Part shown: positions 1-9,895 of the stretch, in pieces
Layout: every line of letters starts with the position of its first letter
Position numbering within the stretch: position 1 is the stretch's first letter
Assembly: GCA_018697205.1 (NCBI GenBank)
Contig: JABHTG010000134.1
Span: 1 to 11,124 of the forward strand
Reading direction: 5' to 3'
From: Nitrospina sp.
Lineage (GTDB): Bacteria; Nitrospinota; Nitrospinia; Nitrospinales; VA-1
Length of the DNA stretch: 11,124 nucleotides
The notes under the pieces: generated by a model
Seen by the model: only the letters and a program-made list of their open reading frames with translations
The model's database searches: none
What the model was told of the DNA's origin: nothing
Made by a program: the position numbers and the translations under genes

Positions 1-71
1 CTAGATTAATATCACGCTTTCCTATTTCATAATAAGGAAAAACTGTTAACATTAAAATATAAAAACTATCT

Positions 72-76
72 AGGAG
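72..76 (+). promoter_or_regulatory. Shine-Dalgarno (AGGAG) 7 nt upstream of the SPFH gene ATG
   Basis: The AGGAG at 72-76 followed by ATG at 84 is read directly from the sequence. Confidence 0.5.
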
Positions 77-83
77 ATGGTAA

Positions 84-854
84 ATGGACGTTACCATAAT
101 CATTTTAATAATAGTTGGCCTGCTTCTTTTTAGCGCATTTAATGTTCTTAGAGAATATGAACGTGGAGTTATCTTTATGCTAGGTCGATACTGGAAAGTT
201 AAGGGACCTGGGCTCATCATAGTCATACCCGGAATTCAAAAAATCGTCAAAGTAAGCCTTCGCACAGTTGTAATGGACGTACCTCCCCAAGATATTATTA
301 CTCTAGACAATGTGACAGTTAAGGTTAACGCAGTTATATATTTTCGGGTAATGGACTCTAAGAAGGCTATCATAGAAGTCGAAGATTACCTTTACGCCAC
401 ATCCCAATTAGCCCAAACTACTCTACGAAGTATACTAGGTCAGAGTCAACTTGATGACCTTTTGTCTAAACGTGATGAAATCAACTCCCAACTTCAAAGA
501 GTGATTGACGAACAAACAGAACCATGGGGCGTTAAAGTTGCTAATGTTGAGGTTAAAAATGTTGATTTACCTCAAGAAATGCAGCGAGCCATAGCTAAAC
601 AGGCAGAAGCAGAGCGGGAACGACGTGCCAAAGTAATTAATGCCATGGGTGAGTTTGAAGCAGCGGAAAAATTAGGCCAAGCTGCAGATACTATAGGACA
701 GCATCCACCAGCGCTACAATTAAGATTTTTACAAACAATTTTAGACATCTCAACTGACCGAAACACAACCACCTTCTTCCCTCTCCCAATGGAACTTTTT
801 GAAGGATTTTACAAACAAAAACAATCTAAAAATGAGAACATAGATAGTAAATAA
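84..854 (+). CDS. SPFH/band-7 family membrane protein (stomatin/prohibitin-like, QmcA/YbbK type) with a single N-terminal TM anchor
   Basis: The N-terminal hydrophobic helix is [19 protein letters not shown]. The canonical SPFH core follows ([13 protein letters not shown]...[12 protein letters not shown]...[24 protein letters not shown]...[15 protein letters not shown]), and then an Ala/Glu/Arg-rich coiled-coil segment ([13 protein letters not shown]). A good SD lies upstream. Confidence 0.9.
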
Positions 855-945: not shown

Positions 946-3900
946 ATGGAATCTCAAACAAAAATCCTAAACTTTCTGAATAGAGTTAGACGACTGCACT
1001 TTTATGCCCATACCCTCCAAGGAACCTATATCCTCCTAGCATATTTTACTGGAGCTGGTCTTTTAGGTTGTTTAATAGGGTTGAGCTATAAACCGGCTGA
1101 TGGATGGATTATTCCAGCAATAAGTTTTTTTTGCATAGGGTTGGTCTATATAGTTTACAAGTATTTCATCAAAATTCTAATCTCGCCGTTTTCCAATGAT
1201 GATGCAGCGCTACTTGCAGAGTCACGTTACCCAGAGGTAAATAACTCTCTCATAAATTCCTACCAATTAAGCAAACACCTTAAAGATTCGCATTTTAAAA
1301 ATACTATTTCCCTAAATTTAATCAAAGAGTTACACAAAAGAACAAGTAAAGAGCTAGACCAAATTGATCCAGCGTTATTAATCAGCCAAAGTAGTATAGT
1401 TTTTCATCGGAACTGGTTTTTTGGCATATTAGCGACGCTTGTACTAACAGTCATTTTTTTTCCCGAGCTTCTAACAAAGGGTTATGAAAATTGGGCTAAT
1501 CCTAGAATATTAGCTAAAACTGAACAAGATAAAATGGCTAATCAAAACCAGACAAAACCTAAGCTAGGTGCTGTCAATTACTCAATTGAATCTCTGGATT
1601 TAAATTTTCATTTTCCTTCATATACGCGAAAGAACTCTGAGCTAATAAAAAATTCTAAAGGAATAATCCATGTCCTACCTGGAACTGAAGTCAATATATC
1701 GGCTAAAACTAACACCAAGATAAATGGAGGAAATCTAATATTTAAAGGCAAAGACTCATTTGCCATGAAAAAAGAAAATAGTAAATACCTAAAGAGCAGT
1801 CTACTAGTCAAAGAAGGAGGGTTTTATCAGTTTAAAATTAAGGGTTCAGATGGTAGTGAGCAGCTGCTCGCAAAAAAATATCCAGTAACACTTGTTAAAG
1901 ATAACCCTCCTAACATTATTTTATTTTTAGCCAACCCTAGGCCAGTATATTTTCTCACTGATAAAGTTGAGTTGTTTTATGAAGGGAGTGATGATTTTGG
2001 CATAAATACAATAGATTTGGTTATTTCCATAAATGGAACAACAGAACGACTTCCAGTTAAAAAAAATAACAACCAAGAAAAGATGGCTAAAGGTAGTTAC
2101 ACCTGGTCTCTCGCGCAAATGTCTATAAATCCTGGCGATGAAGTTAATTACTATTTAGAAATTAATGATAATGATAATATTTTTGGCCCTAACAAAGGTC
2201 AGTCCGAGACCTACAGTTTTAAAATTTTTGACTCTGGAAAAGAGCTGGAAAACCTTGTTGAGATGCAAGAAGATCTTGTTGAAAAAATGATTGCTCTTCT
2301 AGCAACAGGACTAGTAAAAGGAGCATCTCTTAATAATCAACCAAACAACCTCATAGGCTGGAAAGAATTATTAACAGGCAATATTGATGAACTGATCAAA
2401 ATAGTAAGCCTTACACAGAAAGTTTACGACCGAGGAAAAGCAATTGATCAATTTCCTCAGAAATACTTAGACTTACTTAAAAATATTACCAGAGGATTAT
2501 CCCAAATTCGGAAAAATCAAATAAAATCTCTTAGTAACCTTCAAAGTCAAATTCATAAGCCCAACCAAGCAATACTAAAACTCATATCACCATACGCACC
2601 CGCCAATAATGAAATGACGGATCACCTCGAAAAAGATATTTTATTTTTAGTTAAAATGACCAATCAGCAAAAGATAACTAGAGCAAAGACTCTAGAGGAG
2701 GAGTTAAATGACCTCACCCAAAAACTACGAGAAGACTTAGAGAAATCCAACAACGAAAAAATTTCTAAAAACTCGAAAAAGTTAGTTGACAAAATAGATG
2801 AACTCCAAAAAGTTCTACAAAAATTGATGAACCAATTATCACGTCAGACGAATGGTACACCAGATGAGTTTTTAAACCCAGATGCCTTTAAGCGATTAAA
2901 TATTGAAAAGCTTTCTGATGCACTAAAAAAGATGCAGAATATGGTAAGCCGAGGAAAATTTGAAGAAGCTATAGAAGAATTAAAAAAAATGGAAGAAGAC
3001 CTCAAGCTTCTCGCGAATCAGATACATCGTGCTGACTCAGAAAAAGAAAGCTTTTTTGATCCAGAAACAATCAAAATAATAGATAGTAGTATCAAAAAAG
3101 TGGACAAATTAGAGAGGAGACAGCAGAAACTAGCAGAATCAACGACTCAAATAAACCAGGAGCTAAGAGAGCAGCAATCAAAAGCATTTGAAAACCAAAT
3201 TGACAAACTATTCAAGGGTCTACTCCTCGATATAGACTCAATCCGCAGTATTTTTAAAGAAGATGAAAAGTTCCTAGCAAGTCACAAAGCGATGAACCAA
3301 ATAAAGATTTTCATAGATAAAGAAATTGAGATGAAGAAAAAGATAAAACAATTAAGCCAAGCAACTGTCGATTTTTCAGGGTCAGAAAAACTAGACCAAA
3401 GCTTCACTAATCTTAAAGAAGCGCGCAATAAGCTCTCGGAGTTAATCGTAAAGAAAAGTTCACTTAATTTAGATGAGCCTCAGAAATTTAGAGAAACTCT
3501 ACCTCAAATACTTAAAAAATACGACTCCCTCAAAAAGCTGGCTAAGTTACAAGATCTTAATGAATTTAAAGATGTTTTCAAGCAGGCCTACCCAAATGTA
3601 TTGAGATGGCAGTATAAGATACGTACTACACCTAATCTCCGAAATGACATTTCAGACAAATTGGAAGAAGATTTAGCGCGAGTATCTCAGATAAATAACT
3701 CGATATCTAAAAAAATTGGTTCGATGGTACGCTCAATTAGAAAAAACTACAGTTCATCGATAACAAGGAATCAAAAAAAAGAATTAAAACAAATGGGAAA
3801 ACAGGAACAACAACTACAACAGGAAGTACAAAAACTGTCTAAGCAGTTTAATGAGTTAAGCAAAAAAAACCCAATGATACCCTCAGAGCTTTCACAAAGA

Positions 3901-4281
3901 ATGAAAAAAACCGCGCGTCATATGGAACAAGCGGCAACTAACCTTAAAGAACAAAATGTCCGCCAAAGTATCGAATCTGAAAACCAAGCCCTCAAAGGTC
4001 TAAACGAGACAAGCGACTTATTAAGGCAAATGAAAAGCTCTAACGGAGAAACGAAACAAGCAAAAAGACAAAATCCTCGAAAACTCGGGACTGGCAGCAG
4101 CCCAGATTCTCGACGAGGTAGTGCGTCACGAATGAAAAAAGAACACGTGCGACTCCCAGATGAAACCCAGTATAAAGCACCAAAAGAATTCCGCGAAGAA
4201 ATATTAAACGCAATGAAAAAACAAGCGCCTAAAAACTACGAACGTATGATTATGGAATATTATAAGGATCTAGTGCAGTGA
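946..4281 (+). CDS. Giant (1111 aa) membrane-anchored coiled-coil protein of unknown function. It has three N-terminal TM helices, a beta-rich module and a ~600-aa K/E/Q-rich coiled coil; the architecture is reminiscent of DUF4175/TIGR02302-like proteins
   Basis: The ORF is long and uninterrupted. Hydrophobic helices sit at aa ~27-46, 54-79 and 157-176 (nt ~1021-1473). A beta-strand-like region spans aa ~200-430. A heptad-like Lys/Glu/Gln-rich region spans nt ~2233-4066. There is a basic Arg/Ser-rich tail (RQNPRKLGTGSSPDSRRGSASR) and a conserved-looking C-terminus (YERMIMEYYKDL). The family assignment is from memory and not verified. Confidence 0.75.
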   Translation: MESQTKILNFLNRVRRLHFYAHTLQGTYILLAYFTGAGLLGCLIGLSYKPADGWIIPAISFFCIGLVYIVYKYFIKILISPFSNDDAALLAESRYPEVNNSLINSYQLSKHLKDSHFKNTISLNLIKELHKRTSKELDQIDPALLISQSSIVFHRNWFFGILATLVLTVIFFPELLTKGYENWANPRILAKTEQDKMANQNQTKPKLGAVNYSIESLDLNFHFPSYTRKNSELIKNSKGIIHVLPGTEVNISAKTNTKINGGNLIFKGKDSFAMKKENSKYLKSSLLVKEGGFYQFKIKGSDGSEQLLAKKYPVTLVKDNPPNIILFLANPRPVYFLTDKVELFYEGSDDFGINTIDLVISINGTTERLPVKKNNNQEKMAKGSYTWSLAQMSINPGDEVNYYLEINDNDNIFGPNKGQSETYSFKIFDSGKELENLVEMQEDLVEKMIALLATGLVKGASLNNQPNNLIGWKELLTGNIDELIKIVSLTQKVYDRGKAIDQFPQKYLDLLKNITRGLSQIRKNQIKSLSNLQSQIHKPNQAILKLISPYAPANNEMTDHLEKDILFLVKMTNQQKITRAKTLEEELNDLTQKLREDLEKSNNEKISKNSKKLVDKIDELQKVLQKLMNQLSRQTNGTPDEFLNPDAFKRLNIEKLSDALKKMQNMVSRGKFEEAIEELKKMEEDLKLLANQIHRADSEKESFFDPETIKIIDSSIKKVDKLERRQQKLAESTTQINQELREQQSKAFENQIDKLFKGLLLDIDSIRSIFKEDEKFLASHKAMNQIKIFIDKEIEMKKKIKQLSQATVDFSGSEKLDQSFTNLKEARNKLSELIVKKSSLNLDEPQKFRETLPQILKKYDSLKKLAKLQDLNEFKDVFKQAYPNVLRWQYKIRTTPNLRNDISDKLEEDLARVSQINNSISKKIGSMVRSIRKNYSSSITRNQKKELKQMGKQEQQLQQEVQKLSKQFNELSKKNPMIPSELSQRMKKTARHMEQAATNLKEQNVRQSIESENQALKGLNETSDLLRQMKSSNGETKQAKRQNPRKLGTGSSPDSRRGSASRMKKEHVRLPDETQYKAPKEFREEILNAMKKQAPKNYERMIMEYYKDLVQ

Positions 4282-5846
4282 AACATATGTTTTTTATAAT
4301 AAGTACTTGCCTGATTGGATTCAATTTAATCCCCCCACTTATTACATCAGCAATTGGGTTGCCTCAAAAAGAGATATATGCAGGGCACAAACTAATAGAT
4401 AAATGGAATACTAATGCAGCAGAGCAATATGCAAACAACTTACTTAAAAAGTATCCTAAATCAGGAGATGTATATTTCCTTAAAGCGCGCATAGAATTTT
4501 TAAAAGGAAACCATGAAATAGCCTGGGAAATTCTAAAACAAGTAAATAGTAACCATAAAGAAGTACGCGAATTCAAAAACCTCATCTACAACACCTACGA
4601 AGAAACAAAACTATTTACAACAAGCGAATCAAAACATTTTATCTACCGCTATCAAAAAGGACCGGATGAAATACTAGTTCATTATGCTACCCAAGCTATG
4701 GAAAAATCTTATGAGGTTCTAGGAAACATTTTAAATTACTATCCAAAAGAAAAAGTTTTAGTTGAGTTCTATCCGAACCAAAAATCCTTATCTAAAGTTT
4801 CTCCGTTAACTCTTGATGATATAACTACCTCCGGCACAGTCGCTCTCTGTAAATACAATCGAATTATGATTATCTCCCCAGGATCTTTAGTCCGCGGTTA
4901 CAATTGGATGGACACCTTGAGCCACGAATATATTCACTACATACTGACTAAGAAAAGCCAAAACAACCTACCTTTATGGTTACATGAGGGAATAGCAAAG
5001 TATTACGAAGCACGATGGAGAAATAAACACGAATACTTATCGCCCATCATGGAAACAATGCTTGCGGGAGGACTACAAGAAAACTATCTAATATCATTAG
5101 AGAATATGATGCCTTCGCTGGCAAAGCTAAAAACAGCCGAGGATGTTCAACTTGCTTATGCTGAAGTTTCTACAATGATTGAATACATTACCAAAGTTCA
5201 TGGAGATAAAATAATTTCAACTCTTCTGGAAAGATTGGCAAGAGAAGAAACATTTGAATCTGTAATATATACAACTCTAGGAACAAACCTAGATATAATT
5301 CAGGAAAATTGGAAGCACTTTGTAAAACAAAAACAACTCAAAATTATTCCAAGACTCAAGCCGCCAGGAGTTTATTTTAAAACAGACCGTTCGTCTAAAG
5401 AGCCAAGCAAAGAATATCGTGAAATTGATAATAGGAAGAGTCGAGACCTAATATTTTTAGGTGACGTTTTAAAATCAAGGAACTTTTATAAAGCAGCTCT
5501 TATCGAATATCAACGTGCGATCGAACAATCAAAAAATTTCTCCCCCCAACTCCATAACAAACTAGCCAAGACTCATCTAATCACCAGGGAATATAACAAA
5601 GCCAAAGTTATCCTAAATAGAAGCTTACATTACTATCCTATGTTTCACTCTACCCTTGCAAGTTTAGGTGAATTATATTTTGATCTAGGAAAAATAGAAA
5701 AATCTCGGACTTTCTATGAACGAGCGATTAAAATTAACCCTTTCAATCCTTTTGTTCATATGCGACTAATAACGATCTACCAAAAACTAGGGTGGAAAAA
5801 AGAAAAAGCATTACAGGTAAAACTTGCCGGCTATATAAACCACTAA
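4278..5846 (+). CDS. Secreted or periplasmic TPR-repeat protein with a gluzincin-like (peptidase MA-type) HExxH...E zinc-binding motif; putative metalloprotease
   Basis: The start codon GTG at 4278 overlaps the upstream TGA stop (GTGA); an alternative ATG lies at 4287. The N-terminal hydrophobic signal or anchor is FFIISTCLIGFNLIPPLI. A TPR-like helix pair is near the N-terminus, and HEYIH sits at nt 4923-4937 with the downstream Glu at 4986-4988 (WLHEG). C-terminal TPR repeats follow (YKAALIEYQRAIE..., LGELYFDLGKIEKSRTFYERAIKINP). Confidence 0.7.
   Translation: MKHMFFIISTCLIGFNLIPPLITSAIGLPQKEIYAGHKLIDKWNTNAAEQYANNLLKKYPKSGDVYFLKARIEFLKGNHEIAWEILKQVNSNHKEVREFKNLIYNTYEETKLFTTSESKHFIYRYQKGPDEILVHYATQAMEKSYEVLGNILNYYPKEKVLVEFYPNQKSLSKVSPLTLDDITTSGTVALCKYNRIMIISPGSLVRGYNWMDTLSHEYIHYILTKKSQNNLPLWLHEGIAKYYEARWRNKHEYLSPIMETMLAGGLQENYLISLENMMPSLAKLKTAEDVQLAYAEVSTMIEYITKVHGDKIISTLLERLAREETFESVIYTTLGTNLDIIQENWKHFVKQKQLKIIPRLKPPGVYFKTDRSSKEPSKEYREIDNRKSRDLIFLGDVLKSRNFYKAALIEYQRAIEQSKNFSPQLHNKLAKTHLITREYNKAKVILNRSLHYYPMFHSTLASLGELYFDLGKIEKSRTFYERAIKINPFNPFVHMRLITIYQKLGWKKEKALQVKLAGYINH
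4923..4988 (+). other. HExxH + downstream E zincin signature (HEYIH x16 E) inside the TPR protein
   Basis: The motif is read directly from the translation: H216-E217-x-x-H220 ... E237. Confidence 0.6.
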
Positions 5847-5870: not shown

Positions 5871-6860
5871 ATGACTACAAACTTAGAACTAGTAAAAGAG
5901 TTAGTGGATTCCAAAAGTCTCATCATAAAAGAAATTCGTAAAGTGATCGTAGGACAAGACGACGTACTAGAAGATTTGCTGGTAGCTCTTTTTTGCAAAG
6001 GGCATTGCCTTTTTGTTGGTGTCCCCGGCTTGGCAAAAACACTACTTGTAAAAACTCTAGCGAGGGTACTAAACCTTAGTTTTAGTAGAATACAATTTAC
6101 TCCTGACCTGATGCCTTCAGATATTACAGGAACAGATATACTTTATGAAGATCACACAACCAACAAAAGGGGTTTTCGCTTTATAAAAGGTCCGATTTTT
6201 TCAAATATTGTTTTAGCCGATGAAATAAATCGAACCCCACCTAAGACGCAAGCCGCGCTGCTCCAGGCGATGCAGGAACAGCAGGTAACCGTTGGTGGAA
6301 ATACCTATGAACTAGATCAACCTTTTCTAGTTTTTGCGACACAAAATCCCATTGAGCACGAAGGTACTTACCCCTTACCTGAAGCACAACTCGACCGTTT
6401 TATGTTCATAATAAATGTAGGTTATCCTACAATGAAACAAGAAGTGAGAATTGCGATGACCACTACTTCTGGAATACACCCAGAAATGAATATGGTGTTA
6501 AATGCAAAACAGGTGAAAGATTTTCAAAGGCTAGTGCCATGCGTTCCAGTTTCAGAGCATGTCGCTGAGTATGCAGTAAGGCTAGCGCAAAGTTCACGTC
6601 CAAGTAAAAATGGTAGTACTCCCGACTTTATAAACGAGTGGGTTGATTGGGGAGCTGGACCTCGTGCTTCTCAATATCTCCTAATGGGGGCAAAAGCACG
6701 CGCCCTAATGGACAATAGAGTCGCTGCAACTATCGAAGATGTTAAACGTGTAACCCGCCAAGTCCTTGAACACAGAATCATACTTAACTTCAAGGCCAAA
6801 GCCGAAAATATCACCACAAATGATATCATCGAAAAACTTTTAAAATCAATCAAGGCATAA
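5871..6860 (+). CDS. MoxR-family AAA+ ATPase (AAA_3 / MRP subfamily)
   Basis: Walker A GVPGLAKT sits at nt 6018-6041 and Walker B is VLADEINR. The MoxR-diagnostic stretch is PPKTQAALLQAMQEQQVTVGG...FLVFATQNPIEHEGTYPLPEAQLDRF. The length (329 aa) is typical. Confidence 0.92.
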   Translation: MTTNLELVKELVDSKSLIIKEIRKVIVGQDDVLEDLLVALFCKGHCLFVGVPGLAKTLLVKTLARVLNLSFSRIQFTPDLMPSDITGTDILYEDHTTNKRGFRFIKGPIFSNIVLADEINRTPPKTQAALLQAMQEQQVTVGGNTYELDQPFLVFATQNPIEHEGTYPLPEAQLDRFMFIINVGYPTMKQEVRIAMTTTSGIHPEMNMVLNAKQVKDFQRLVPCVPVSEHVAEYAVRLAQSSRPSKNGSTPDFINEWVDWGAGPRASQYLLMGAKARALMDNRVAATIEDVKRVTRQVLEHRIILNFKAKAENITTNDIIEKLLKSIKA

Positions 6861-6861
6861 A

Positions 6862-7500
6862 CTAGGAAGGGCTAATTAGGCCGGCTGTTTTCCAATCAAC
6901 TTTCAACTCTTTAACTACCCCTGAGCGAGTACAATATTTCACATGACCATGTGATTCGCCATACAGAAACAAATCTCGGGTAATCTCAACATCTTGTTTG
7001 CAGTACTCAATAATCTTGTCTATTTTTCCTTCTTTATACCATTGCAAAGAAACCAAACCGTCAGCACTTTTTTTTGCATTCAGTGAGTTTTCTGCTAAAT
7101 GATTAAGGCTAAGTCTGTGGTTAAGTTTGGCCTTAATATCGTCCAACATGTCAAAAGTAGCTATTTCATTAAGGTCAAAATCAGCGTATGGCTGCAATAC
7201 AGTATAATCAAATTTTTTCACATTAAACCCCACAACCAGATCGGCTTTACTAAGTTTTTCGACTAACTGGGAAGCCTCGCTTTCAAGGTAGCTAAAATGC
7301 TTTTGCTCAACACTGTCCCACACTACACCCACAGCAAGCCCCATAAGGTGAATATTTCCCCACCCTCCAACGTCGTCAGCGCTTTTTTGAGTTTCCAAGT
7401 CAAAATAAAGCACACGATACGAATTCAACGCTTTAGGGATAGTTTTAGGCTCTATTTTATTCTTTATGGGGTCTTCAAACAGGTCCAACTGCTCTGACAT
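6862..7500 (-). CDS. DEDDy-type 3'-5' exonuclease (DnaQ/RNase D/PolB-exo-like fold), standalone 212 aa
   Basis: Exo I is FDLET (D34, E36). Exo II is FNVKKFD (D98). Exo III is YCKQD (Y166-x3-D170). These are read from the reverse-strand translation. Confidence 0.7.
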   Translation of the reverse strand: MSEQLDLFEDPIKNKIEPKTIPKALNSYRVLYFDLETQKSADDVGGWGNIHLMGLAVGVVWDSVEQKHFSYLESEASQLVEKLSKADLVVGFNVKKFDYTVLQPYADFDLNEIATFDMLDDIKAKLNHRLSLNHLAENSLNAKKSADGLVSLQWYKEGKIDKIIEYCKQDVEITRDLFLYGESHGHVKYCTRSGVVKELKVDWKTAGLISPS

Positions 7501-7792: not shown

Positions 7793-9415
7793 ATGGCACA
7801 AAACGCAGTATTTGGCATAAATTCTAATCTAGACACTCAGGATATCATCAATAAGATGGTTTCACTGGAAGCTCGGTCGATGGATCTTATCGAAGCCAAA
7901 AAACAAATAGAGCAGCAAAAGTTGTCTAGTTTTCAGGAATTAAAAAATAGGTTACAAACGTTCAAAAGCGTTGTAACCACATTAAATACCGAAAGCCGCT
8001 TTATAGTTAATAAAAGCTCTTTTTCAAATAGCAGCTCTTCAGACAGCAATAAAGTCGTAGATATAACTACCACCAGTTCAGCAACTTCTGGCACATATTC
8101 ACTAATAGTTAATAACCTAGCTACTGAAACAAAAATTATTTCAGAAGGCTTTCCTACTACTACTTCAGAAGTAACAATGAGTAGCTTAGTTGTCACCGTT
8201 GGCGGAGTTGCAAAAACAATTAATGTCGATAGTTCAAATAATACGGTAGATGGCCTAAGGCTAGCTATTAACAACCTAGGGCTTGATGTGAAGGCATCTT
8301 TTTTAAATGATGGCGATGATACTAATCCAATTCGACTTCTTATTTCGGGTAATTTAACTGGAGCAAGCGGGGCTGTAACGGTGGTTAATCCTGTTAGTGG
8401 AATAGGAACAGGAGCATTATCAGGTATAGACTTCAAAACAAAACAATATGCCCAAAATGCTAGTTTTACAATAGATGGTGTTGCTGTTAGTAAATCGTCT
8501 AATACTGTTTCAGACGTTATTAGCGGCGCGGCCTTAAAGCTGCAATCAGCTGGTTCAGGAACTATCTCTCTTTCCACAGATACAGATGCGATAACCAGCA
8601 AAGTCTCTGACTTTGTAGATGAATACAATGAAATTTCTTTATTCCTTCGTGAACAGCTAGCGTTAGATCCAGAGTCTGAGGAGACGGGTGTGTTATTTGG
8701 CAATTTTGCCGTACAAAATTTACAACAAATCCTTCGAAGTTCAATAAGTAGTGAAGTAACTGGTATTAGCGGTGACTATAAATACCTTTCGCAAATCGGT
8801 ATTACCACTGAGTCAGACGGGTCTCTAGTTTTAGATACCGATGACCTTTCTGAAGCATTAATAGACGACATACAGAATGTAAGCCAGCTGTTTTCGAGTA
8901 AAGGAACCGTAACACATTCATCTGTAGCTTATGTCGGCTTCACTAGCGATACAGAGCCGGGATACTACGACTTAAAAGTAGCTAACGGAGTCCCTCAACT
9001 GAGTAACTCAGGGGCCGCTACCTTTGTGAACGCTTCCGGATCTGGAAATTTTTGGGCAGGTTCCTCAGGAGATGCAACTGGCCTTAACTTTCGTATCAGT
9101 AATTTATCTAATGGTGATTATGGACAAGTATGGCTATCAATCGGAGTCGCAGAAATTCTTAATCGCCAGTTGGAGAATATGGTTGACTCTTCATTAAATG
9201 GCCCCTTGGTCACAGAAGTTGACACGATCACCGAGACAGTTGACGATTTCAATATAACACTACTTAACCAAGCAGAACGTCTACTTGAATTCGAAGAAAG
9301 CCTTAAAGCAAAATTTTCCAACTTAGAAATTGTCCTGGGAAGACTTAACGCACAAAGAGATACCTTTAATAGCTCTTTAGCAGGAATTCAAAATATTTTC
9401 TCTCAGAAAAAATAA
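7793..9415 (+). CDS. fliD: Flagellar filament cap protein FliD (hook-associated protein 2)
   Basis: The N-terminal FliD_N-like segment is GINSNLDTQDIINKMVSLEARSMDLIEAKKQIEQQKLSSFQELKNRLQTFKSVVTTLN. The central domain is Ser/Thr-rich and variable. The C-terminal FliD_C-like helix is KAKFSNLEIVLGRLNAQRDTFNSSLAGIQ. Confidence 0.9.
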   Translation: MAQNAVFGINSNLDTQDIINKMVSLEARSMDLIEAKKQIEQQKLSSFQELKNRLQTFKSVVTTLNTESRFIVNKSSFSNSSSSDSNKVVDITTTSSATSGTYSLIVNNLATETKIISEGFPTTTSEVTMSSLVVTVGGVAKTINVDSSNNTVDGLRLAINNLGLDVKASFLNDGDDTNPIRLLISGNLTGASGAVTVVNPVSGIGTGALSGIDFKTKQYAQNASFTIDGVAVSKSSNTVSDVISGAALKLQSAGSGTISLSTDTDAITSKVSDFVDEYNEISLFLREQLALDPESEETGVLFGNFAVQNLQQILRSSISSEVTGISGDYKYLSQIGITTESDGSLVLDTDDLSEALIDDIQNVSQLFSSKGTVTHSSVAYVGFTSDTEPGYYDLKVANGVPQLSNSGAATFVNASGSGNFWAGSSGDATGLNFRISNLSNGDYGQVWLSIGVAEILNRQLENMVDSSLNGPLVTEVDTITETVDDFNITLLNQAERLLEFEESLKAKFSNLEIVLGRLNAQRDTFNSSLAGIQNIFSQKK

Positions 9416-9448: not shown

Positions 9449-9895
9449 ATGGTTAAGCATAGATTTCATAAAGAATATCATAAAAACGAAATAGCTACTT
9501 CCAGCCAGGCTAAACTAATCGTCATGATGTACGAAGGTGCCTTAAAATTCGTAAATTTGGCTATCGAGGGAATTGACAATCACGACCTATCAAAAAAAGG
9601 GAAATATATCAATAAAACTCACGATATCATAAATGAGCTGTCGTGTGCTTTAGACATGAAAAAAGGTGGTGAGGTGTCCCAAAAACTTGAATCGCTTTAT
9701 CAATTTATTCTTCATCAATTAACCCTAGCTAATATTAAATCAGATCGTAAAACTCTCGAGTCGATAGTAAGTGTTATCACACCACTAATGGAAGCTTGGA
9801 AAGAATTATTAGTGAAAAAGAATACTAACGACAAAGGCAATAGCCACCAAAACATATCTACCCAGCCACACAAAAAGATCGCATCAAAATGTTGA
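9449..9895 (+). CDS. fliS: Flagellin-specific export chaperone FliS
   Basis: The protein is 148 aa. Conserved FliS blocks are LIVMMYEGALKFVNLAIEGI, KGKYINKTHDIINELSCALDMKKGGEVSQKLESLYQFILHQL and PLMEAWKEL. It lies immediately downstream of fliD, with a 33-nt gap. Confidence 0.9.
   Translation: MVKHRFHKEYHKNEIATSSQAKLIVMMYEGALKFVNLAIEGIDNHDLSKKGKYINKTHDIINELSCALDMKKGGEVSQKLESLYQFILHQLTLANIKSDRKTLESIVSVITPLMEAWKELLVKKNTNDKGNSHQNISTQPHKKIASKC

Follow-up and report, generated by a model that had tools for sequence, protein, structure and literature searches.

The window analysed here, a stretch of 11,124 nt of Nitrospina sp. DNA (NCBI GenBank assembly GCA_018697205.1, contig JABHTG010000134.1), raised the question of what a very long membrane protein encoded next to a peptidase and an ATPase might do. 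A sequence-only reading had proposed a 1111-aa ORF at 946–4281 and had suggested a resemblance to the DUF4175/TIGR02302 class of proteins. The ORF was confirmed, on the plus strand and with an ATG start (Table 1), and its product is identical (100%) to a hypothetical protein of a Nitrospina sp. MAG. The suggestion of DUF4175 proved correct, as Pfam PF13779 matched the protein with 67.6 bits (cut-off 27.3, E 8.2e-19) and did so colinearly, with aa 224–425, 585–745 and 941–1091 corresponding to profile positions 193–390, 485–634 and 655–806, respectively. TIGR02302 was absent from an NCBIfam scan, of which the sole return was an unrelated match (E 0.071). The N-terminal transmembrane (TM) helices, the motifs of the β-module and the C-terminal motif are common to the window protein and the family, whereas the former exceeds the 825 positions of the Pfam model by ca. 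290 residues; these extra residues appear to be located in the helical region.

Judged by its sequence, the protein is therefore an ordinary member of the widespread, uncharacterised DUF4175 family, which counts 8970 representatives (50% identity clusters, E ≤ 1e-3) with no assigned function, and for this window itself the corrected annotation and structural picture are the main gain. The DUF4175 profile also matched 30/30 distant relatives tested. Full-length Nitrospinota homologues measure 1089–1125 aa, and this clade shares only 18–24% identity with the other sampled clades. Family-wide counts given below refer to 134 representatives, i.e. the full-length members (930–1194 aa) among the best 150 of the 8970. 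Some homologues have been named 'SbcCD ATPase subunit' by database annotators. Literature searches with DUF4175, TIGR02302, DUF4159 and Peptidase_MA_2 yielded nothing functional, the DUF4175 search returning only a partial domain match in Acinetobacter AdvA. Neither Rfam nor tRNA scans detected anything in the window, and promoter and terminator scans scored no better than shuffles.

Table 1. Features of the window, with positions counted from its first nucleotide
Feature	Position	Strand	Basis or remark
SPFH/Band 7 membrane protein	84..854	+	Pfam Band_7, 131 bits; 91 nt upstream of DUF4175 gene
DUF4175-family gene	946..4281	+	1111 aa, ATG start, stop TGA at 4279–4281; ORF list, Pfam
Basic N-terminus (RVRRL), aa 1–25, predicted cytoplasmic	946..1020	+	K+R bias
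TM helical hairpin (TM1, TM2) with ca. 7-aa outer loop, aa 26–72	1021..1161	+	Kyte-Doolittle, AlphaFold
Conserved TM2–TM3 helical insert, aa 73–154, predicted cytoplasmic	1162..1407	+	Helices 84–145, conserved motif, charge bias
TM3, aa 155–177	1408..1476	+	Kyte-Doolittle peak 2.24, AlphaFold helix 149–171
Poorly conserved flexible linker, aa 178–211	1477..1578	+	pLDDT <50 at 187–208; column identity 0.30
First predicted Ig-like β-sandwich, aa 212–317	1579..1896	+	Strands 214–316 (AlphaFold), Foldseek, invariant columns
Second predicted Ig-like β-sandwich, aa 320–428, with acidic family motifs	1903..2229	+	Strands 323–427 (AlphaFold), invariant columns
All-α region, ca. 17 helices in predicted tandem up-down helical bundles, aa 429–1034	2230..4047	+	
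Disordered basic Gly/Ser/Arg-rich linker, aa 1035–1065	4048..4140	+	pLDDT <50
Family-wide C-terminal peptide, candidate docking motif, aa 1066–1111	4141..4278	+	Conservation
TPR-gluzincin-TPR partner: signal peptide, N-terminal TPR, Peptidase_MA_2, C-terminal TPR	4278..5846	+	Pfam, junction sequence
MoxR-type AAA+ ATPase (AAA_3)	5871..6860	+	Pfam AAA_3, 211 bits; 24 nt after peptidase gene

The strongest finding comes from gene context, beginning with the downstream peptidase gene, whose GTG start overlaps the stop codon of the DUF4175 gene (GTGA), an overlap of 4 nt that recurs at 45 of 67 DUF4175-peptidase junctions. The gluzincin site residues of its product (H216-E-x-x-H220, E237 and E244) are all kept in 62/62 orthologues, the N-termini sampled among these orthologues resemble signal peptides, and the C-terminal TPRs resemble peptide-binding TPRs (OGT, Hop, CTPR3). 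These features point to translational coupling of DUF4175 to a probably secreted TPR-gluzincin-TPR metallopeptidase with intact active-site residues. Homologues retrieved with the peptidase core were mostly fragmentary, and their names were uninformative. Across at least four lineages the peptidase gene lies directly downstream in 134 of the 138 testable loci (Nitrospinota 37/37, Planctomycetota 22/26, Myxococcota 6/6, distant clade 69/69), the exceptions being four Planctomycetota loci without a downstream peptidase, so that in terms of gene order the pairing is present in every lineage sampled. This conserved order strongly supports the initial suggestion that the membrane-anchored protein could serve the adjacent peptidase and ATPase as a scaffold. 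For one distant member (L090), the gene table shows DUF4159 upstream and lists no peptidase.

The wider neighbourhood was compared by a genome-locus search based on a seven-sequence alignment, in which neighbouring genes of high-GC loci were located by tblastn, and three contigs (P0120, P0144 and P0195) were too short for useful gene context. MoxR follows downstream in 27/27 Nitrospinota, 4/5 Myxococcota and 37/58 distant-clade loci, and was found within 10 kb of the pair in 0/21 Planctomycetota loci, indicating that the locus does not require the ATPase. A Band 7 neighbour is present at 30/42 Nitrospinota loci and at no locus outside this group. The genes fliD and fliS, 3.5 kb downstream here, are present behind many Nitrospinota loci. 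In many lineages the gene order reads DUF4175-PepMA/TPR-MoxR-DUF58-BatA, and the membrane protein of the operon with the BatA N-terminus often carries a VWA domain. Specifically, DUF58 was found at 31/53 and BatA/VWA at 27/45 loci of the distant clade, both were found in 3/4 Myxococcota, and within 10 kb of the Nitrospinota loci the counts were 0/25 for DUF58 and 0/24 for BatA/VWA. As far as gene order tells, the pair thus heads a MoxR-DUF58-BatA operon in many lineages, and Nitrospinota retain MoxR alone of these, which suggests that MoxR may serve another client there.

Among known systems, the nearest are the Bat/MoxR-DUF58-VWA envelope operons of Bacteroides fragilis (BatI), Borrelia (bb0170-0176), Leptospira (bat) and Rhizobium leguminosarum (RL3499-RL3502), for which envelope integrity and stress phenotypes are reported (PMC5700661 and its references); the VWA domain of the BatA/VWA protein of a Bat-like locus is periplasmic (PMC5700661). 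Such MoxR operons have eluded explanation since 1999. In these operons, as here, an AAA_3 MoxR adjoins large membrane proteins and TPR proteins, and the DUF4175-peptidase pair of related clades stands directly upstream of MoxR-DUF58-BatA. In contrast, the Nitrospinota loci combine the adjacent MoxR with no DUF58, BatA or VWA gene within 10 kb, a gluzincin domain forms part of the TPR protein here, and the window protein does not itself belong to BatA, BatB or BatD, as no match to BatA (PF07584), BatD or VWA was obtained with Pfam at E ≤ 0.1. BatC and BatE are not known to carry a peptidase domain.

The three TM helices that had been read behind RVRRL were borne out, with Kyte-Doolittle peaks (aa 26–48, 51–82 and 155–179) and AlphaFold helices (3–47, 55–79 and 149–171) in agreement, and 104 of the 134 representatives likewise have three N-terminal hydrophobic segments. 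The anchor therefore consists of three helices with a conserved insert of ca. 80 aa between TM2 and TM3, in which the motif AALLxExKYPELNNSLINSxQL is conserved among homologues and E92, P96, L102, I103, Q107 and S122 are invariant in the seven-sequence alignment (21–24% identity). Across homologues, K+R averaged 5–6 in the N-terminus, 0.3–0.5 in the TM1-TM2 loop, 3.1–3.7 before TM3 and 1.8–2.1 after it. From this charge bias and the signal peptide of the partner we infer an N-in topology, which would place the last ca. 930 residues in the periplasm alongside the peptidase and predicts the insert to be the only sizeable cytoplasmic part.

Following the anchor, a β-rich module with a possible Ig-like or other β-sandwich fold had been suggested, and the AlphaFold model indeed resolved aa 214–427 into two β-sandwich domains. 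Foldseek matched them to tandem Ig-like domains with probability 1.0 (C3 MG domains, KIR, Fab and GH157 C-terminal domains), the TM-scores being low because the query was the full chain, and Big_7 matched 3/30 relatives. Among distant relatives P224, Y226, G239 and G246 of the first sandwich are invariant, as are D319, P322, D349, D350 and D408; the motifs of the second sandwich are DDFG (349–352) and E405-x-x-D408-N-D410, with DD[FY][GA] found in 126 of the 134 representatives. The model thus portrays aa 212–428 as two tandem Ig-like β-sandwiches with invariant acidic motifs.

At the other end of the protein, the tail originally described as basic and RS-rich retained its basic character (K+R 28% in aa 1036–1078, pLDDT <50), and in family representatives G+S+R+Q+P make up 49% of the linker. 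The conserved-looking C-terminus beyond it turned out to be the best-conserved stretch of the whole protein, its ca. 45 aa showing 0.78–0.83 column identity within Nitrospinota. Its consensus, hxIPxxExYKVPKEFRxEILxAMKxxxPxxYxxxxxxYYxxL, was recovered in 30/30 aligned distant relatives and in 120 of the 134 representatives. This peptide has low pLDDT in the AlphaFold model despite its top conservation, a combination that folding upon binding would explain.

Taken as a whole, we tentatively favour, with slightly less than even confidence, DUF4175 as an inner-membrane-anchored periplasmic scaffold that belongs to a Bat-like envelope system and keeps the peptidase in place, or regulates it, via its C-terminal peptide. 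Its putative rod would act as a membrane-anchored scaffold in the periplasm, and the C-terminal peptide, on its flexible leash, may dock into a TPR groove of the peptidase, thereby positioning, activating or restraining the enzyme at a fixed distance from the inner membrane. MoxR, elsewhere with DUF58/BatA, might assemble or remodel the complex at the cytoplasmic insert. Together they would form a module of a Bat-like system, devoted to maintaining the envelope or to quality control. TolA, a helical and highly charged protein of the periplasm, is anchored in the inner membrane and contacts the TPR protein CpoB/YbgF with its far end, and BepA is a periplasmic TPR-fused zinc metallopeptidase of envelope quality control. 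DUF4175, likewise putatively anchored, charged, helical and provided with a TPR partner, and its partner, likewise a predicted zinc peptidase fused to TPRs, may be functional analogues of these; both likenesses serve as leads only, as no homology to TolA, CpoB or M48 peptidases was detected. Should an active periplasmic metallopeptidase be the obligate partner of DUF4175, and should DUF4175 often head MoxR-DUF58-BatA, this would give the system a concrete testable hypothesis and a mutable interaction motif. More doubtful is the bolder view that DUF4175 and the TPR-gluzincin protein make up a periplasmic arm of Bat-like systems that had not been described before, with a talin-like rod, a tail-docked zinc peptidase and AAA+ assembly or switching through the cytoplasmic insert; if true, ATP would control a trans-membrane machine for proteolysis or quality control that is widespread in several phyla.

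The intact active site of the partner, together with the disordered, protease-accessible linker right before the invariant tail, would also suit DUF4175 as a substrate or sensor, in which the peptidase cleaves the basic linker or tail as a trans-membrane regulated-proteolysis signal (cf. an anti-sigma factor or RseA) that the conserved cytoplasmic insert could relay inward. An ECF sigma factor gene is indeed located divergently upstream on one contig (L089), but this neighbour occurred only once, Pfam detected no sigma or anti-sigma domain in the protein, the operon lacks a site-2 protease, and a conserved bundle region of 600 aa is more than a cleavage substrate requires. We consider this explanation rather unlikely.

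The helical region had initially been taken for a low-complexity, K/E/Q-rich coiled coil of ca. 600 aa. Its K/E/Q richness stands (31% of aa 429–1035). Its entropy (3.57 bits per 40-aa window) is close to the 3.6–3.7 bits elsewhere in the protein, and the region is so conserved that the low-complexity label is wrong: 33 homologues of 37–75% identity introduced no more than 33 insert columns, and invariant positions occur throughout. A failed coiled-coil prediction, named beforehand as counting against the original idea, was observed in part. Ten heptad-like stretches of 28–40 aa exceeded the 99th percentile of shuffles, but these were the only ones, 14 prolines interrupt aa 429–1035, and the hydrophobic periodicity peaked at 3.67 rather than 3.5. 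Neither the heptads uninterrupted over hundreds of residues nor the extended helix of a canonical long coiled coil was found, the helices measuring 16–74 aa with conserved Pro/Gly turns between them (longest 53 aa, or ca. 8 nm, in the full-length model and 74 aa in a sub-model).

The helices match four-helix bundles, and the region is modelled as four to five up-down bundles of the talin/vinculin/FAT kind. These matches are generic four-helix bundles that include de novo designs, and thus indicate a fold class and not homology: identity to talin, vinculin and α-catenin rods and FAT domains is 4–15%, without sequence relationship, and the site of talin-type rods is the cytoskeleton, whereas here it would be the bacterial periplasm. 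Foldseek of the helical sub-model against PDB found nothing at E ≤ 1e-3, a sequence profile search of solved structures retrieved only designed helical bundles (E ≥ 0.002), and hhalign among the five helical segments revealed no internal repeat (best probability 33%). The all-helical, K/E/Q-rich composition, the ten heptad-like stretches and the tight length of the Nitrospinota homologues would fit a single membrane-anchored coiled coil of ca. 600 residues and ca. 90 nm, serving as a molecular ruler or as a tether across the periplasm, as would a weak match to the ZorA tail (PADLOC defence library, 21.7 bits, E 1.8e-5). However, the latter was judged compositional, since MotA/ExbB models gave no match in the TM region, and the modelled series of bundles, with its split helices, its periodicity and a conservation pattern typical for folded domains, replaces a continuous ruler. 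The width of the Gram-negative periplasm, moreover, is about one third of 90 nm. On balance, the ruler is very improbable.

A cytoplasmic location of the large domain, as a ZorA- or SMC-like helical tail on which MoxR acts directly and with the peptidase linked through a shared pathway without contact, would agree with MoxR and DUF58 being generally considered cytoplasmic, with the ZorA-tail match and with the SbcCD names. Yet Pfam and NCBIfam found no SMC, ATPase head or other ATPase domain, nor a MotA/ExbB channel domain, in the protein, and no ZorB/MotB-like gene is present at the locus. The charge bias favouring N-in, C-out, the predicted tandem Ig-like domains with acidic motifs typical for extracytoplasmic proteins, and the signal peptide on the partner likewise oppose this option, which is highly improbable. 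A flagellum-associated protein, as the fliD-fliS genes downstream of many Nitrospinota loci might suggest, is almost certainly the wrong reading, since an opposite-strand exonuclease gene intervenes (with four further genes between in L005), in Brocadiia anammox bacteria neither MoxR nor Band 7 accompanies the pair at its locus, and the downstream genes checked by Pfam in other lineages are non-flagellar.

The 1111-aa protein is a regular member of the known, uncharacterised DUF4175 family (PF13779), which it matches in Pfam at 67.6 bits (cut-off 27.3). Pfam sub-scans revealed colinear coverage of the model, with aa 224-425, 585-745 and 941-1091 corresponding to profile positions 193-390, 485-634 and 655-806, respectively. 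The sequence-only reading had likened the protein to both DUF4175 and TIGR02302; the former was right, whereas the latter was wrong, since an NCBIfam scan yielded no TIGR02302 match. A Nitrospina sp. MAG has an identical entry, annotated as a hypothetical protein, and 93 close homologues (37-75% identity; full-length members 1089-1125 aa) apparently all belong to Nitrospinota, all source names given being Nitrospina, Nitrospinae or Nitrospinota. A family profile search of 1.84 billion representatives revealed 8970 proteins at E<=1e-3, 982 of them reaching E<=1e-30. The family also has an Elusimicrobiota clade. Among the best 150 members, 134 were full-length (930-1194 aa, median 1044), of which 104 carried three N-terminal hydrophobic segments, 126 DD[FY][GA] and 120 the C-terminal motif. 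In databases homologues already bear the label "DUF4175 family protein", and a literature search on the family returned nothing functional. The gene context and the corrected fold are useful, not surprising in kind.

Gene context is the main new result. A genome scan yielded 80 loci (ca. 41 Nitrospinota, ca. 33 Planctomycetota, mostly Brocadiia, and 6 Myxococcota or unclassified deltaproteobacterial), and scanning metagenomes with a distant DUF4175 clade as seed added 80 further loci. The common gene order was DUF4175, peptidase/TPR, MoxR, DUF58 and BatA. A widespread Bat-like operon is thus represented in the window by its 5′ half.

Downstream genes detected by tblastn (denominators: loci whose 3′ flank was long enough to test)
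Gene	Nitrospinota	Planctomycetota	Myxococcota	Distant clade
Peptidase core	37/37	22/26	6/6	69/69
MoxR	27/27	0/21	4/5	37/58
DUF58	0/25	0/19	3/4	31/53
BatA-type	0/24	0/19	3/4	27/45

The pairing of DUF4175 with a secreted, active-site-intact metallopeptidase is obligate and translationally coupled, and linkage to MoxR-DUF58-BatA is frequent. In the window the peptidase GTG start overlaps the DUF4175 stop as GTGA, and 4-nt overlaps occurred at 45/67 junctions of the first locus set (L001-L087). The partner has the Pfam order TPR, Peptidase_MA_2, TPR, with HExxH, E237 and E244 invariant in 62/62 orthologues; its C-terminal TPRs resemble peptide-binding TPRs, and its peptidase core has no sequence relative among solved structures. 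MoxR (AAA_3, 211 bits, Pfam) follows 24 nt downstream. A VWA protein is the usual partner of MoxR ATPases. Though MoxR is kept in Nitrospinota (window and L008-L048), neither DUF58 nor BatA/VWA was present downstream at any of the 24-25 testable loci, so that its partner is either encoded elsewhere in the genome or dispensable for MoxR action. An SPFH/Band 7 gene lies 91 nt upstream of DUF4175 in the window; it is conserved at 30/42 Nitrospinota loci and absent from other lineages; because SPFH proteins often organise membrane proteases, its product may be part of the DUF4175-peptidase unit.

A few Planctomycetota loci lacked a peptidase 3′ of DUF4175: L054 and L083 (both Brocadiaceae), L073, L077 and L078. 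In L054 and L083, the only matches were weak ones, confined to the TPRs and located upstream on the other strand. An alternative genomic context is seen at locus L090, where a DUF4159 gene (1967-2668) overlaps the start of the distant member P0262, pyruvate:ferredoxin oxidoreductase genes come next, and the gene table holds no peptidase. At two Brocadiia loci a PlsC-type acyltransferase gene lies divergently upstream of DUF4175 (L058, 8803-9540 (-); L067, 8920-9723 (-)).

An AlphaFold2 model built on a 33-sequence alignment (mean pLDDT 79.4, pTM 0.47) resolved the domain anatomy.

Features of the window (nt) and of the DUF4175 protein (aa)
Feature	Position	Strand	Source
SPFH/Band 7 (stomatin/HflK-like) membrane protein	nt 84-854	+	
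DUF4175 protein	nt 946-4281	+	
Peptidase/TPR partner	nt 4278-5846	+	
MoxR	nt 5871-6860		Pfam
DEDD-type 3′-5′ exonuclease, 212 aa	nt 6862-7500	-	
fliD (filament cap)	nt 7793-9415		
Antisense ORF within fliD, 256 aa	nt 7933-8703	-	
fliS (flagellin chaperone)	nt 9449-9895		
Hydropathy peaks	aa 26-48, 51-82, 155-179		
TM hairpin helices	aa 3-47 and 55-79		AlphaFold2
Helical insert	aa 84-145		AlphaFold2
TM3 helix	aa 149-171		AlphaFold2
Disordered linker	aa 187-208		AlphaFold2
Two beta-sandwich domains	strands aa 214-316 and 323-427		AlphaFold2
Helical region, ~17 helices	aa 430-1033		AlphaFold2
Disordered stretch	aa 1035-1078		AlphaFold2
Two short terminal helices	C-terminal end		AlphaFold2

The model and the hydropathy peaks bore out the basic RVRRL N-terminus with three TM helices noted beforehand, and the beta-rich module, for which an Ig-like or beta-sandwich fold had been put up for checking, matched tandem Ig-like domains in the PDB at Foldseek probability 1.0 (complement C3 MG domains, KIR/LILR, Fab light chains, GH157 C-terminal domains). 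Big_7 (Pfam) was matched by 3/30 distant relatives, and P224, Y226, G239, G246, D319, P322, D349, D350 and D408 in this module were invariant at 18-22% identity. The C-terminus, already remarked on as conserved-looking, is the most conserved part of the protein: it aligned as hxIPxxExYKVPKEFRxEILxAMKxxxPxxYxxxxxxYYxxL in 30/30 distant sequences, with P1071, R1083 and Y1105 invariant at 18-22% identity. Since so conserved a stretch is modelled at low pLDDT in the monomer, the tail is a candidate motif that folds on binding.

A scaffold for peptidase and ATPase had been proposed; the peptidase pairing and frequent MoxR linkage agree with it, and the scaffold role itself stays conjectural. The periplasmic rod would serve as scaffold, its leashed C-terminal peptide might enter a TPR groove of the peptidase to localise or gate the peptidase, and the conserved cytoplasmic insert (aa 73-154) could be a handle for the ATPase module. 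In Borrelia, a BatA/VWA protein is an inner-membrane protein with a periplasmic VWA domain (PMC5700661), and a Rhizobium MoxR operon is cited there for envelope and morphology defects; PMC3557215 describes Bat protein function as still undemonstrated. Such knowledge of Bat-like loci fits an envelope role without defining it. Possibly, DUF4175 is instead a substrate or sensor in regulated proteolysis: its linker is exposed, and a single ECF sigma-70 gene (L089, 331-999 (-)), located on a short metagenome contig in divergent orientation 5′ of a distant DUF4175 gene, hints at a signalling link.

A continuous coiled-coil ruler, as suggested by the supposed ~600-aa K/E/Q coiled coil of ~90 nm, is contradicted by the heptad scan and by helix lengths and matches of the helical model. 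The scan picked out no more than ten heptad-like stretches, each 28-40 aa long, 14 prolines break the region, and hydrophobic periodicity peaks at 3.67, not 3.5. Nor is the region low-complexity as described: its entropy is ordinary (3.57 bits per 40-aa window), column identity (0.51-0.72) is the same as elsewhere in the protein, and 33 sequences with identity down to 37% required only 33 insert columns. The longest helix measures ~8 nm in the full-length model, and a sub-model has one 74-aa helix. The region is therefore a succession of four to five separate helical bundles, each conserved, and not a 90-nm coiled coil.

Across homologues, mean K+R was 5-6 in the N-terminus versus 0.3-0.5 in the 7-aa TM1-TM2 loop, and 3.1-3.7 just N-terminal versus 1.8-2.1 C-terminal of TM3, a distribution that favours an N-in topology with the last ~930 residues outside. 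Partner N-termini were signal-peptide-like in sampled orthologues, and acidic-motif-bearing Ig-like domains are typical of extracytoplasmic proteins; because of these features and the charge bias, the large C-terminal part is likely periplasmic. The charge bias, the signal-peptide-like partner N-termini and the Pfam/NCBIfam scans all contradict a cytoplasmic tail of the ZorA or SMC kind.

The other lineages lack the neighbours specific to Nitrospinota, which contradicts a flagellar role. In the window, fliD and fliS stand by themselves as a pair and are the only flagellar genes. In the gene table of L001, a contig identical to that of the window, a succinyl-CoA ligase beta-subunit gene is next after fliS and should pass the window's 3′ end. 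The Ser/Thr/Val-rich antisense ORF within fliD is most likely a shadow ORF and no gene. The exonuclease gene (DNA_pol_A_exo1 / RNase_H_2) between MoxR and fliD, on the opposite strand, is kept in many Nitrospinota loci.
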